Positions 180 through 4,582 of a stretch of 4,582 nucleotides of DNA are shown in pieces. The DNA comes from a virus (taxonomy: Duplodnaviria > Heunggongvirae > Uroviricota > Caudoviricetes): IMG/VR virus record IMGVR_UViG_2531839237_000015; one strand, given 5' to 3'. The position numbers and the translations under genes are program-made. Below the pieces are notes generated by a model. That model did not search any database and was not told the origin of the DNA. It worked only from the letters and a program-made list of their open reading frames with translations. Each line of letters opens with the position of its first letter. Position 1 is the stretch's first letter.

Positions 180-431
180 TCAGGCAGCCTTGTTGTAAAT
201 GTTGCAGGTATCAAGTAAGTAATTAGATGGAGCGCCATAAATTATGAATTCATCGTTTGTCGGGTCCATCTCCATCTCTTGTCCTATTGCCATTCTTGCG
301 TCAGTGTCGTCAGCGGCGAAGCATAAAACAGCCCACGCACCCATTGTTTTAAAAAGAACTGCAATTGGCTGTGGTTTTACTGAATTTGCGTTAGCGCGAA
401 AATCACAAATCGCACTTTCATGAAATTCCAT
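180..431 (-). CDS. Hypothetical protein, 83 aa, downstream of the N-like gene in the leftward early operon
   Basis: ATG-initiated ORF with a strong RBS (minus strand GAGGTGATAT then ATG). Sits 58 bp after the N-like stop on the same strand. No family recognised. Confidence 0.5.
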   Translation of the reverse strand: MEFHESAICDFRANANSVKPQPIAVLFKTMGAWAVLCFAADDTDARMAIGQEMEMDPTNDEFIIYGAPSNYLLDTCNIYNKAA

Positions 432-1159: not shown

Positions 1160-1187
1160 GAAAAGAAAACCCGGCATGGAGGCCGGG
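1160..1187 (-). terminator. Rho-independent terminator for leftward transcription, downstream of the 173-aa cargo gene (position analogous to lambda tIMM)
   Basis: Minus strand CCCGGC-ctccat-GCCGGG (plus 1170-1187) followed by TTTTCTTTTCC. Confidence 0.55.
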
Positions 1188-1194
1188 TTGATGA

Positions 1195-1317
1195 TTAGCG
1201 GTGTGGCCTTGAGCGATAATGCTCACACACATGTTCAAGATTTCCATGCCTTATCCGTTCATAGGCATTCACATGAACTTCTCGATCGAATTGGTCATTC
1301 AAATTGTATGTAGACAT
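1195..1317 (-). CDS. Possible small ORF (40 aa, MSTYNLNDQFDREVHVNAYERIRHGNLEHVCEHYRSRPHR) ending immediately before the terminator
   Basis: ATG at 1317..1315, stop TAA at 1197..1195, then the terminator hairpin 8 bp further on. RBS is weak (GAGAAA). Found by hand translation; it is below the ORF-track length cutoff. Confidence 0.2.
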   Translation of the reverse strand: MSTYNLNDQFDREVHVNAYERIRHGNLEHVCEHYRSRPHR

Positions 1318-1490
1318 CTGTGTTTTCTCATATTGGCGGCAGCCCTACAACCGCTTGAAAAAATGTACCAGACGCGCTAAGGTTACATCGCAAATATTGT
1401 GTACCTTAACAAGGGCTCCTTTTGGAGGCTCTGGTTAAACAGCATCAATGTCGGACTGGGGAGTTGGACATTGTGCTGAATGCTTTTGCA

Positions 1491-2012
1491 TTATTGAGGC
1501 CGAACGTAAACCTTCAGAATTGAAGAGATGCGTTCGGCTTCTTCGTTTGTGATATCGTTAGGAATGCCTTTAATCGTTACTGTAACCCCTGATTCAGGTC
1601 GAAGAACTACTGGAAGATCATAGGTATGAAGTGCATTAGCCTTGCCTTCGACTTTTGTTGGTTCGCCAGTCAAATCTTTTTCCTCACTGGATTCTTTGTC
1701 AATCGGAGTGTATGGGATTTCTTCACCAGACTGGAAAGCTACAAACTTTTTGATTGCACTTTCCATGCGGCTTTTATATGCAGTAATGCTGCTGTCGCTA
1801 GGCTTCGGCTCAGTTGCGTTGATGTATCGCTCGGCAAGCTCATTCACATCAAGCTGAGTAACATCACCCATTTCCTCTTCTTGGACTACCGTTAAGAGGC
1901 GAGCGGATGAGTTTTTTAAATTTCGAGCGGTGGCCTCCTTCATTATGTTCAGCGACATAAGCTCTTCAAGGAAGTCCTTGAATGCCTGCACGCTAACGTT
2001 TGACTTTGCCAT
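1491..2012 (-). CDS. Hypothetical protein, 173 aa, non-lambda cargo gene occupying the rexA/rexB slot downstream of cI
   Basis: Clean ATG-initiated ORF, the only long ORF between cI and the N operon. Predicted helical N-terminal region, acidic Ser/Glu/Lys-rich linker and a compact C-terminal region (LHTYDLPVVLRPESGVTVTIKGIPNDITNEEAERISSILKVYVRPQ). No similarity to RexA, RexB or any family I can name. Flanked by its own promoter-like and terminator elements. Confidence 0.7.
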   Translation of the reverse strand: MAKSNVSVQAFKDFLEELMSLNIMKEATARNLKNSSARLLTVVQEEEMGDVTQLDVNELAERYINATEPKPSDSSITAYKSRMESAIKKFVAFQSGEEIPYTPIDKESSEEKDLTGEPTKVEGKANALHTYDLPVVLRPESGVTVTIKGIPNDITNEEAERISSILKVYVRPQ

Positions 2013-2044: not shown

Positions 2045-2086
2045 AGTTTATCCAGGAATTGATTTGCATGCAAGACTCAAGTCTTG
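2045..2086 (-). promoter_or_regulatory. Candidate promoter and operator-like palindrome upstream of the 173-aa gene
   Basis: Minus strand TTGCAT (plus 2068-2073), 17-bp spacer, TAAACT (plus 2045-2050). Perfect inverted repeat CAAGAC-tcaa-GTCTTG at plus 2071-2086 and the 10-bp palindrome TTGCATGCAA at 2064-2073. Confidence 0.25.
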
Positions 2087-2112: not shown

Positions 2113-2139
2113 AATAAAAAAGGCCGCACCTCTGCGACC
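2113..2139 (-). terminator. Rho-independent terminator for leftward transcription, about 375 bp downstream of the cI stop
   Basis: Minus strand GGUCGCA-gagg-UGCGGCC (7-bp stem including one G-U pair) followed by UUUUUUAUU. The stem is weaker on the plus strand (C-A mismatch, poor T-tract), so it is orientation-specific. Confidence 0.45.
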
Positions 2140-2513
2140 TTTCATCTCCTAAATCTCTTTTCTCTTACCTAAAGAAACAGCAGGCTGGGTCAGCCCTAAC
2201 AACTTCAAGTGCATCGGTCAGAGAAAGCTCCGTGCTATACAGGTGTTATTTCATATCTTTTTGCATCCAATAAATTTTCCATCTGTCCAGAGAGCGGATG
2301 CACTTGATTCTTGTTGATGGCAGGACGTTTTTTCACCTGCCTCACCCTGCCATACAGGACGCTGCTCACCGATATCTATCGTCCGGTCATTGATGTTATA
2401 GACAATATCCAGATCATTACGGATATACTCAGATGGCCTTATGCTTTCAATGAATAGATGAACTTCTTTTTGACCGCTTGATACTCATGGCCATTAAACT
2501 CCATCTATCCTCT

Positions 2514-3230
<717 letters not shown>

Positions 3231-3237
3231 TTAAATC

Positions 3238-3303
3238 TATCACCGCAAGGGATAAATATCTAACACCGCGCGTGTTGACTGCTTTACCTCTGGCGGTGAT
3301 AAT
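3238..3303. promoter_or_regulatory. Right operator OR3-OR2-OR1 with divergent promoters pRM (leftward, cI) and pR (rightward, cro)
   Basis: OR3 TATCACCGCAAGGGATA (3238-3254), OR2 TAACACCGCGCGTGTTG (3261-3277), OR1 TACCTCTGGCGGTGATA (3285-3301). pR -35 TTGACT (3275-3280) and -10 GATAAT (3298-3303). Near-identical to lambda OR. Confidence 0.92.
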
Positions 3304-3318
3304 GGTTGCATGTACTAA

Positions 3319-3528
<210 letters not shown>

Positions 3529-3535
3529 ATAACCC

Positions 3536-3567
3536 CGCTCTTACACATTCCAGCCCTGAAAAAGGGC
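3536..3567 (+). promoter_or_regulatory. nutR (boxA and boxB); the rho-dependent tR1 region follows, about 3570-3640
   Basis: boxA CGCTCTTA (3536-3543) and boxB GCCCTGAAAAAGGGC (3553-3567), exactly as in lambda nutR. Confidence 0.85.
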
Positions 3568-3624
3568 ATCCAATTAAACCACACCTATGGTGTATGCATT
3601 TATTTGCATACATTCAATCAATTG

Positions 3625-3670
3625 TTATCTAAGGAAATACTTACATATGGTTCGTGCAAACAAACGCAAC
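3625..3670 (-). promoter_or_regulatory. pRE promoter region with CII binding site (TTGC-N6-TTGC), leftward
   Basis: Minus strand TTGCGTTTGTTTGC at plus 3656-3669, overlapping the first cII codons, as in lambda pRE. Confidence 0.6.
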
Positions 3671-3940
3671 GAGGCTCTACGAATCGAGAGTGCGTTGCTT
3701 AACAAAATCGCAATGCTTGGAACTGAGAAGACAGCGGAAGCTGTGGGAGTTGATAAGTCGCAGATCAGCAGGTGGAAGAGAGACTGGATTCCAAAGTTCT
3801 CAATGCTGCTTGCTGTTCTTGAATGGGGGGTCGTTGACGACGACATGGCTCGATTGGCGCGACAAGTTGCTGCGATTCTCACCAATAAAAAACGCCCGGC
3901 GGCAACCGAGCGTTCTGAACAAATCCAGATGGAGTTCTGA
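3647..3940 (+). CDS. cII: CII transcriptional activator, 97 aa
   Basis: Translation MVRANKRNEALRIESALLNKIAMLGTEKTAEAVGVDKSQISRWKRDWIPKFSMLLAVLEWGVVDDDMARLARQVAAILTNKKRPAATERSEQIQMEF matches lambda CII. True start is ATG at 3647; the ORF-track start at 3587 is an upstream in-frame extension. Confidence 0.95.
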   Translation: MVRANKRNEALRIESALLNKIAMLGTEKTAEAVGVDKSQISRWKRDWIPKFSMLLAVLEWGVVDDDMARLARQVAAILTNKKRPAATERSEQIQMEF

Positions 3941-3962
3941 GGTCATTACTGGATCTATCAAC
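3886..3962 (-). ncRNA. oop: oop antisense RNA with its intrinsic terminator overlapping the 3' end of cII
   Basis: Position is colinear with lambda oop. Minus-strand terminator CGCTCGG-ttgccg-CCGGGCG followed by TTTTTTATT ends near 3886. The exact 5' end is inferred from lambda colinearity. Confidence 0.6.
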
Positions 3963-3972
3963 AGGAGTCATT

Positions 3973-4533
3973 ATGACAAATACAGCAAAAATACTCAACT
4001 TCGGCAGAGGTAACTTTGCCGGACAGGAGCGTAATGTGGCAGATCTCGATGATGGTTACGCCAGACTATCAAATATGCTGCTTGAGGCTTATTCGGGCGC
4101 AGATCTGACCAAGCGACAGTTTAAAGTGCTGCTTGCCATTCTGCGTAAAACCTATGGGTGGAATAAACCAATGGACAGAATCACCGATTCTCAACTTAGC
4201 GAGATTACAAAGTTACCTGTCAAACGGTGCAATGAAGCCAAGTTAGAACTCGTCAGAATGAATATTATCAAGCAGCAAGGCGGCATGTTTGGACCAAATA
4301 AAAACATCTCAGAATGGTGTATCCCTCAAAACGAGGGAAAATCCCCTAAAACGAGGGATAAAACATCCCTCAAATTGGGGGATTGCTATCCCTCAAATTG
4401 GGGGATTGCTATCCCTCAAAACAGGGGGACACAAAAGACACTATTACAAAAGAAAAAAGAAAAGATTATTCGTCCGAGAATTCTGGCGAATCCTCTGACC
4501 AGCCAGAAAACGAAACCAGCGCCGCCTGGGTAG
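3973..4533 (+). pseudogene. O: Replication initiator O, disrupted: lambda-like for about the first 141 codons, then frameshifted by a 23-bp iteron duplication and ending at a stop inside gsk-like sequence
   Basis: N-terminal translation MTNTAKILNFGRGNFAGQERNVADLDDGYARLSNMLLEAYSGADLTKRQFKVLLAILRKTYGWNKPMDRITDSQLSEITKLPVKRCNEAKLELVRMNIIKQQGGMFGPNKNISEWCIPQNEGKSPKTRDKTSLKLGDCYPS matches lambda O. After codon 141 (from 4396) the frame departs from lambda (NWGIAIPQNRG... instead of KQGDTKDTITKEKRKDYSSENSG...). The C-terminal P-interaction domain is absent. Confidence 0.85.
4321..4470 (+). repeat. ori-lambda-type replication origin: five 18-19 bp iterons plus the AT-rich region (lambda has four iterons)
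   Basis: Iterons ATCCCTCAAAACGAGGGA (4321-4338), ATCCCCTAAAACGAGGGA (4341-4358), ATCCCTCAAATTGGGGGA (4365-4382), ATCCCTCAAATTGGGGGA (4388-4405), ATCCCTCAAAACAGGGGGA (4411-4429). Copies three and four are a perfect 23-bp tandem duplication (4365-4387 = 4388-4410). A-rich tract at 4430-4470. Confidence 0.85.
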
Positions 4534-4582
4534 TGGGTATCGATCAAACGCTGGTCGATATTGAAGCGAAAGTGGATGATGA
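4500..4582 (+). CDS. gsk: Internal fragment of inosine-guanosine kinase (Gsk-like), lacking its first ~25 codons and its promoter; continues beyond the right window edge
   Basis: Frame with codons starting at 4503 translates PENETSAAWVVGIDQTLVDIEAKVDDE, which I recall as E. coli Gsk residues about 27-53. Sequence to the left of 4500 is lambda O. Confidence 0.55.

Follow-up and report, generated by a model that had tools for sequence, protein, structure and literature searches.

What does a gene do when it sits between the repressor and the antiterminator of a Shiga toxin (Stx) phage, carries no assigned function, and cannot be deleted? The question is raised by a stretch of 4,582 nucleotides (nt) from a Caudoviricetes virus (IMG/VR record IMGVR_UViG_2531839237_000015), referred to here in its full length as the window. 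An open reading frame (ORF) of 173 amino acids (aa) begins with ATG and occupies positions 1491-2012 on the minus strand. The original prediction, made from the letters alone, described it as an uncharacterized cargo gene in the position held by rexAB in lambda and as a candidate exclusion or lysogenic-conversion gene. The ORF is real and already catalogued. Its product is 100% identical to VT2-Sakai H0093, which is ECs_1184 of Escherichia coli O157:H7 Sakai (NP_309211), and corresponds to ORF b63 of an Stx1 phage. All annotations call it "hypothetical," and its cluster, PHROG 2602, is of unknown function. The findings presented here place the gene in a self-contained, mobile cassette with a structured RNA and a very small ORF, and suggest that its product may be a regulator or antidote within that cassette.

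The cassette: gene, RNA, and small ORF

Read in the direction of transcription, the cassette consists of an insulating terminator, a promoter with an inverted repeat, the 173-aa gene, an RNA of about 170 nt, the small ORF H0092, and a closing terminator. Its parts, and the pseudogene ahead of it, are as follows.

2171-2484, minus strand: DUF3024 pseudogene with one frameshift and one internal stop, between cI and the cassette terminator
2116-2143, minus strand: upstream intrinsic terminator, GGUCGCA-GAGG-UGCGGCC plus U6 (-18.3 kcal/mol, z -4.35)
2071-2086, read from the sequence: perfect palindrome CAAGAC-N4-GTCTTG (CAAGACTCAAGTCTTG), abutting the -35 element; candidate operator
2045-2073, minus strand: promoter-like element (-35 TTGCAT at 2073-2068, 17-nt spacer, -10 TAAACT at 2050-2045)
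1491-2012, minus strand: 173-aa gene (H0093, ECs1184, Sp5 ORF23, PHROG 2602)
1318-1490, minus strand: structured RNA between the 173-aa ORF and the small ORF (minimum free energy -54.1 kcal/mol, z -3.9)
1440-1478, minus strand: P1 hairpin of this RNA, directly past the stop of the 173-aa gene
1367-1435, minus strand: multibranch helices P2-P4 of this RNA
1323-1363, minus strand: P5 hairpin of this RNA, just ahead of the ribosome-binding site of the small ORF
1195-1317, minus strand: 40-aa ORF H0092, the small-ORF component (type C, PHROG 21154)
1160-1189, minus strand: closing intrinsic terminator (stem 1168-1189 plus U tract; -14.3 kcal/mol, z -4.7)

The slot was originally described as holding a single ORF. 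That description does not hold, given the pseudogene and terminator upstream of the gene and the RNA and H0092 downstream of it. The downstream intrinsic terminator was correctly recognized: it is canonical, is also annotated in VT2-Sakai, and has analogues past the small ORF in Proteus and Serratia. It can be inferred that the 173-aa gene and H0092 are co-transcribed, because they share a single promoter and flanking terminators.

The spacer between the two ORFs is a conserved structured RNA that is absent from Rfam (no relevant match at E<=1 for the window and five related loci). In an alignment of four distinct window-type sequences, the 36 base pairs of the structure are 94.4% paired, compared with 28-51% when the partners are slid. 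Five of these pairs are compensatory (e.g., P2 reads ACCAGA:TCTGGT in one lineage and AGCTGC:GCAGTT in another). A better-sampled group of sequences has 26 hand-assigned pairs in six helices, which are 92.5% paired as against 33-48% with partners slid; 13 pairs are compensatory, and in 500 shuffles the covariation score observed was never attained. The presence of G-U pairs supports the sense strand as the RNA. RNAalifold returned only two helices from a mixed alignment, because the window-type sequences carry an insertion. The apex of P1 (1446-1473) is inverted between E. coli (CCAACTCCCCAGTCCG) and two Salmonella loci, L016 and L046 (CAGACTGGGGAGTTGG), with the stem kept, which looks like a template-switch inversion within the hairpin.

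Three types of small ORF follow the RNA. Type A encodes 57-61 aa with the consensus ...RAKAGTPDSERKxLDAHxYGYKCWSFPVR... (PHROG 33859), type B encodes a Zn-ribbon-like product of 47 aa, and type C, which includes H0092, encodes 40-41 aa (PHROG 21154). The type A ORF evolves as a protein under purifying selection: its variable sites are distributed 17/11/41 over the three codon positions, and codon differences are synonymous in 3725 cases and non-synonymous in 1153. A tblastn search with type A against isolated phages gave a single match. In Escherichia phage Phi06_2987 (L082, about 1700-2650), the genes ahead of a type-A-like small ORF and its hairpin-rich leader are a helix-turn-helix (HTH) and ImmA/IrrE-like (HELGH) pair, which is not of the 173-aa family. 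This arrangement suggests that the RNA and microprotein may form a unit that pairs with various upstream regulators. Pairs of HTH and ImmA/IrrE-like genes are commonly treated as antitoxin-like regulators.

At every phage locus examined, in three different slots, a small ORF lies on the same strand 150-175 nt past the stop of the family gene and is followed by a terminator. The first slot is the interval between cI and N: in prophages of Proteus/Morganella/Providencia, Serratia, and Salmonella, the gene has a cI-type S24 repressor on one side, in some cases with DUF3024 after it, and N on the other. The position assigned to the gene by the original prediction is therefore a recurrent one, although the family is also found in other slots and on bacterial chromosomes. 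An identical Salmonella protein coexists with different cI, cro, N, and replication modules. The second slot is a Rac-like nin region, in which relatives with 41-46% identity are preceded by DnaD-like, DnaC-like, DUF1627, and DUF977 genes and followed by a Ref-like nuclease and a methylase. In the third, other relatives lie among tail-sheath or tail-fiber genes, beside cargo such as a DsbA-like gene. The related-locus search recovered seven genome loci. Gene, RNA, and small ORF move together among temperate phages of Enterobacterales through at least three cargo slots. The varied slots and neighbors imply mobile cargo rather than a core part of one immunity system. With its own promoter, bracketing terminators, varied cI, cro, and N neighbors, and variable presence at one site in related phages, the gene behaves as a moron.

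Among the distant members of the family (24-30% identity), those of Wenzhouxiangella (L008 5998-7145, and L010) are carried on the chromosome, with trpS/FAA-hydrolase on one side and rimK on the other. The homologue there shares 4 nt with a conserved 196-aa ORF whose N-terminus is hydrophobic; the two genes form a non-phage pair that lacks the RNA element. Other distant homologues lie near HEPN/nucleotidyltransferase, DUF3800, or PLD-nuclease genes. By profile search, the family comprises at least 632 clusters (50% identity) at E<=1e-3, matched over almost full length; the members listed have 110-238 aa, nearly all of them 157-208 aa. Close homologues (41-99% identity) are found in Salmonella, Cronobacter, Yersinia, Serratia, Proteus, Providencia, and Morganella. 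The gene is carried by 234 of 5426 complete E. coli genomes, O157:H7 making up most of the matches listed, and is absent from 933W, lambda, and most Stx and lambdoid phages.

Upstream of the gene, the terminator at 2116-2143 insulates the ORF from the cI transcript and from read-through of the DUF3024 pseudogene. Its motif, AAGGTCGCAGArrTGCGGCCTTTTTT, is kept in E. coli, Salmonella, Proteus, and Serratia, with unrelated DNA further upstream, and recurs in one tail-fiber-slot locus (L077). The DUF3024 gene is intact in 933W and in Proteus prophages. In 933W-type phages, only the DUF3024 part of this position matches (about 81% identity), and the cassette is unmatched. The promoter-like element has counterparts at equal distance from the ATG in Proteus (TTGCAA-17-TAGAAT) and in the nin-slot group (TTGATC-17-TAAACT). 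It agrees with the consensus at only 7 of 12 positions, which is why a consensus scan did not list it. In E. coli strain 150 (L081 5074-5110), about 130 bp flanked by short AGAGA repeats have been lost naturally; the terminator, palindrome, and promoter are gone, and the ORF is fused behind the cI/DUF3024 transcript.

The promoter-like region and the palindrome emphasized in the original prediction are both present. The palindrome is identical in Salmonella, and its AAGAC/GTCTT half-sites persist in a further locus (L045). By count, however, it is unremarkable, because the window carries 35 perfect 6+6 inverted repeats compared with about 13 expected. Other lineages have different inverted repeats in its place, e.g., GGATTCATCGATC-N17-GATCGATGAATCC. 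This pattern fits lineage-specific operators at the -35 element but does not prove them. In the nin-slot and tail-slot promoters (L058-L072, L005-L007), GATC-rich 13-bp inverted repeats (GGATTCATCGATC...GATCGATGAATCC) overlap the -35 element, about 40-110 nt ahead of the family gene, and may serve as operators, as sites sensitive to Dam/SeqA, or as both. A search of the cassette promoter for Sp5-type or lambda-type operators found none.

Fold of the 173-aa protein

The AlphaFold2 (AF2) model of the protein, based on a 148-sequence alignment, has a mean predicted local distance difference test score (pLDDT) of 89.4. With secondary structure assigned by DSSP, it shows a helical domain, which is soluble, followed by an acidic, disordered linker and a small beta-beta-alpha module, and thereby bears out the three-part architecture proposed at the outset. 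Residues Y79, R82, R138, and P151 are invariant.

Residues 8-94: N-terminal domain of four helices, integrase core-binding-like (AF2)
Residues about 96-128: linker, acidic (net charge -5), disordered, low confidence (AF2)
Residues 130-168: C-terminal module of about 40 aa, beta-hairpin plus helix (beta-beta-alpha) (AF2/DSSP)

The best structural matches are, without exception, recombinase core-binding domains (e.g., PDB 3nrw). Pfam and NCBIfam searches gave matches to Phage_int_SAM, all of them sub-threshold. With hhalign, residues 8-95 align to XerD 5-87, and one homologue is labeled "site-specific recombinase XerD" in one annotation source. On the model, the protein carries an orphan core-binding domain of the tyrosine-recombinase type and no catalytic domain. 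The four-helix domain is shared with tyrosine recombinases (lambda Int core-binding domain, XerD N-domain, PDB 3nrw), whereas the linker and the module of about 40 aa take the place of the catalytic domain and the similarity stays below family thresholds. No PF00589 catalytic domain with an R-K-H-R-H/W-Y site was found, and the protein ends at residue 173; it is thus not a recombinase. The statement that the protein belongs to no recognizable family is correct for Pfam, NCBIfam, and PADLOC, none of which has a match, but it overlooks PHROG 2602 and the core-binding fold.

Several other comparisons were negative. The C-terminal module alone (consensus PIPLRxGxxVxIxGLPxDLTxxEAERI) matches nothing in Pfam or PDB, whole-protein profiles found no meaningful match among PDB sequences, and Foldseek against BFVD gave none at E<=0.001. 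The stretch LPxDLTxxEAERI was considered for a resemblance to the start of the XerD catalytic domain, which is unsupported, as hhalign aligned the core-binding part only. Membership in the group of recombinase-like prophage master repressors (MrpR/YopR, SroF) was rejected; these combine a core-binding domain with a full-length inactive catalytic-like domain (about 320 aa), a combination not seen here. Across the 148 sequences, the linker is acidic in 24, which form the enterobacterial phage clade, and basic in 117. A scan of viral contigs for the basic-linker subfamily found none.

A close known parallel is FliZ, an E. coli global repressor of 183 aa whose DNA-binding region resembles an integrase core-binding domain. 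In hhalign, residues 11-95 of the 173-aa protein align to this region of FliZ (probability 2%, E 0.024). Both proteins have about 180 aa and an orphan core-binding-like domain that serves, or in the 173-aa protein would serve, nucleic-acid binding without recombination. The region is N-terminal in the 173-aa protein and C-terminal in FliZ, no significant sequence relationship exists, and a prophage cargo cassette contrasts with the flagellar operon of FliZ. Membership in the FliZ family was rejected, since the alignment is this weak and confined to core-binding-like segments.

Candidate roles

Two published experiments bear on the gene under the name ECs1184. In a K-12 lysogen of Sp5, markerless in-frame deletions made by sacB allelic exchange yielded 43 mutants (Mondal et al., Scientific Reports 2016, PMC5155283). 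Deletions of ORF23 (ECs1184) and ORF21 (ECs1180) were never obtained; according to the authors, loss "appears to be lethal," and both genes might help to maintain lysogeny (PMC5155283). In the TRAPP study (Nucleic Acids Research 2025, PMC7618764), ECs1184 was among the nucleic-acid-bound proteins recovered from ultraviolet (UV)-cross-linked Sakai cells without inducer (false discovery rate 0.065), as were cI and further DNA binders. The tagged protein was also expressed from pBAD24 in Sakai and purified, with no toxicity reported (PMC7618764). The 173-aa protein is thus made in the uninduced lysogen and probably associated with nucleic acid, and its tolerated over-expression from pBAD suggests that it is not the toxic part of the cassette. 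A literature search under H0093, ECs1183, ECs1182, NP_309211, and WP_001130059 returned nothing relevant.

Undeletability, recovery from the lysogen, fold, and cassette all point to a regulator or antidote role. None of these (the identity with undeletable ECs1184/ORF23, the lysogen recovery, the core-binding fold, the protein-RNA-microprotein cassette) was noticed in the original prediction. The best explanation, held tentatively and short of being probable, is that the 173-aa protein is a nucleic-acid-binding regulator or antidote of a toxin-antitoxin-like module of the addiction or abortive-infection type. The protein would bind the promoter inverted repeat and/or the structured leader RNA and, once bound, would restrain the expression or activity of the downstream small protein, the putative effector. 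An in-frame deletion of ECs1184 leaves the promoter, RNA, and small ORF in place; the small protein would then be released and the deletion counter-selected, which would account for undeletability. The same model would explain why the parts travel together. It also fits the promoter inverted repeats and the defense or toxin-antitoxin neighbors of distant homologues, accommodates more of the facts than the other readings do, and is compatible with an abortive-infection-type defense.

The cassette resembles toxin-antitoxin modules in several respects. It is a compact mobile two-gene unit with an upstream nucleic-acid binder, an inverted repeat at the promoter, and a conserved adjacent partner gene that is presumably co-transcribed. 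The very small downstream product lies behind a long structured leader, and the upstream gene cannot be deleted alone. The counterparts are type II modules, with autoregulated antitoxins, and type I modules whose toxins have long structured leaders, e.g., RalR/RalA. In contrast to such modules, the genes of the cassette do not overlap but lie 150-175 nt apart with an RNA element between them, known families of toxins and antitoxins include neither protein, and toxicity is putative. A still more specific proposal is that the cassette is a new three-component module of core-binding-domain protein, dedicated RNA, and microprotein effector, serving Stx phages and temperate phages of other kinds in addiction or abortive infection; by reading the RNA or its own operator, the core-binding protein would either license the microprotein or block it. 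This is possible but more doubtful.

A number of observations weigh against a toxin-antitoxin-like module. The peptides H0092, type A, and type B are only putative toxins: they are hydrophilic, basic, and Cys/His-containing, unlike classical small membrane toxins, and the three small-ORF types are not demonstrably homologous. The toxin-antitoxin and defense models of PADLOC, Pfam, and NCBIfam gave no match (PADLOC-DB v2, with 5027 models, had none at E<=1 for the 173-aa protein, H0092, the 83-aa ORF, or a 44-aa ORF). DNA binding by the protein is predicted from the model, and direct RNA binding is unproven; the polynucleotide kinase (PNK) RNA signal of ECs1184 was no higher than that of the superfolder green fluorescent protein (sfGFP) control (PMC7618764). 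The covariance model built from the better-sampled RNA group (R1) misses the window copy, so the window RNA depends on its own alignment and on the shared architecture, and four distinct sequences are thinner support. Chromosomal homologues, e.g., in Wenzhouxiangella, lack the RNA and small ORF. Finally, the failed deletion could be an effect in cis, e.g., altered read-through into the left operator and promoter (OL/pL). ORF21, which has no link to the cassette, is equally undeletable (PMC5155283), and a cis or technical cause is accordingly possible.

A sequence-specific, FliZ-like transcription factor for lysogenic conversion, expressed from the prophage and tuning host or prophage promoters, is an unlikely alternative. 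The core-binding fold, the hhalign match to exactly the DNA-binding region of FliZ, and recovery from the uninduced lysogen with DNA-binding proteins all agree with it, as do the moron architecture, the chromosomal homologues in non-phage contexts, and the basic linker of most family members, which is typical of DNA binders. The linker of the phage clade is acidic, however, and an alignment probability of 2% is slight. This alternative explains neither undeletability nor why the RNA and small ORF recur in each of the three phage slots; that these are unrelated passengers, or a 3' untranslated region and a neighbor, is equally unlikely.

Mondal et al. regarded the counter-selected deletion in K-12(Sp5) as evidence for lysogeny maintenance (PMC5155283), by which the protein would be a co-repressor or stabilizer of Sp5 quiescence whose loss leads to induction and cell death. 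The gene adjoins cI and is expressed in the lysogen. This role is nevertheless quite unlikely for a protein that in Salmonella is found in identical form with different cI, cro, and N alleles, whose family also occupies nin and tail cargo slots and chromosomes outside prophages, and whose promoter has no Sp5-type operator nearby. The gene is also missing from most Stx and lambdoid phages, including 933W and lambda, and is present in only 234 of 5426 complete E. coli genomes.

Lambda uses the cI-N interval for RexAB, and the position of the gene led the original prediction to propose a single-protein superinfection-exclusion or defense factor. The cassette does share with RexAB and the DUF3024 cargo of 933W the slot downstream of cI and upstream of OL/pL, as well as expression in the lysogen. 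In keeping with the prediction, rexAB is absent: no ORF in 1150-2520 has such a match in PADLOC, Pfam, or NCBIfam. No sequence or architectural similarity to RexA or RexB was found, nor a rexA/rexB-like pair, and the cassette, unlike rexAB, has a promoter of its own and a terminator that insulates it from cI. It is like lambdoid morons in its promoter, flanking terminators, variable presence, and expression from a repressed prophage, and unlike a typical moron in being two ORFs plus an RNA; moron here names the mode of carriage and not the function. The patchy, mosaic distribution is typical of defense cargo, and BstA is described as a family of prophage-encoded defense proteins. Exclusion by the 173-aa protein alone is improbable all the same, as none of the 5027 PADLOC models matches, Pfam/NCBIfam and the AF2 model reveal no enzymatic or membrane effector domain, and undeletability and the co-travelling RNA and small ORF are left unexplained.

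Least credible is a modulator of site-specific recombination that competes with or assists Int/Xer at core-type sites (e.g., blocking excision or secondary integration): the recombinase-only structural matches and the XerD label of one homologue speak for it, but the gene never lies beside int or xis and occupies cargo slots instead, no att-like sites were identified, and loss of such a modulator should not kill.

The source window and the wider family

The window itself is not the working lambda-immunity prophage that it was taken for. Positions 18-2924 match Stx phages of the VT2-Sakai/Sp5 type by megablast (99.3% identity), and 1150-2520 is 100% identical to VT2-Sakai. Positions 2516-4513 match the lambda-immunity remnant adjoining thrW/proA in O157:H7 (Sp1-like) with five mismatches, all left of 2602. 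The mismatch positions map a single clean crossover to 2601-2613, within the C-terminal domain of cI. The Sp5/VT2-Sakai-type part thus runs from 18 to about 2605 and the O157 Sp1-type remnant from about 2610 to 4513; the remaining 4499-4582 is the chromosomal gene gsk, which shares 15 nt with the end of the O match. The whole arrangement is absent from 5426 complete E. coli genomes, in which at most 63% of the window is found in one place.

2514-3227, minus strand: lambda-type cI (ORF list), right of the 173-aa ORF, with cro, cII, and a truncated O
490-834: N-family antiterminator (Pfam N_peptide, E 2e-32), left of the 173-aa ORF
180-431, minus strand: 83-aa ORF, ECs1180 or Sp5 ORF21 (PHROG 2471, function unknown; no Pfam match)

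The three operators of OL (953-1027) are of the Sp5 type (aAGTACAnnnTGTACTt), and lambda-type operators occur in the window only at the right operator (OR), 3238-3301. The lambda-type cI encoded here could therefore not repress the window's own pL, and for this reason the three-piece mosaic is probably either a chimera made in assembly or a dead recombinant. The 173-aa gene natively belongs to the Sp5 immunity region. In several O157 genomes and in phage PA45, IS629/IS1203 or ISEc8 is inserted on the side of N and the 83-aa ORF, with the cassette intact.

The gene itself had been catalogued; what is new is the fold assigned by modeling, the family with its three slots, the conserved RNA, and the linked microprotein. 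The structured phage RNA is an addition outside Rfam, the family of at least 632 protein clusters has no Pfam model, and the protein joins FliZ as a second use of an integrase core-binding domain outside recombination. The gene resides in the main Stx2 phage of E. coli O157:H7 Sakai, and just one other early gene of Sp5 has likewise resisted deletion. The cassette view makes this puzzle testable. If the cassette does stabilize the prophage, or kills cells upon its loss or mis-expression, it would bear on how Stx phages are maintained and which phages can coexist in enterohemorrhagic E. coli.

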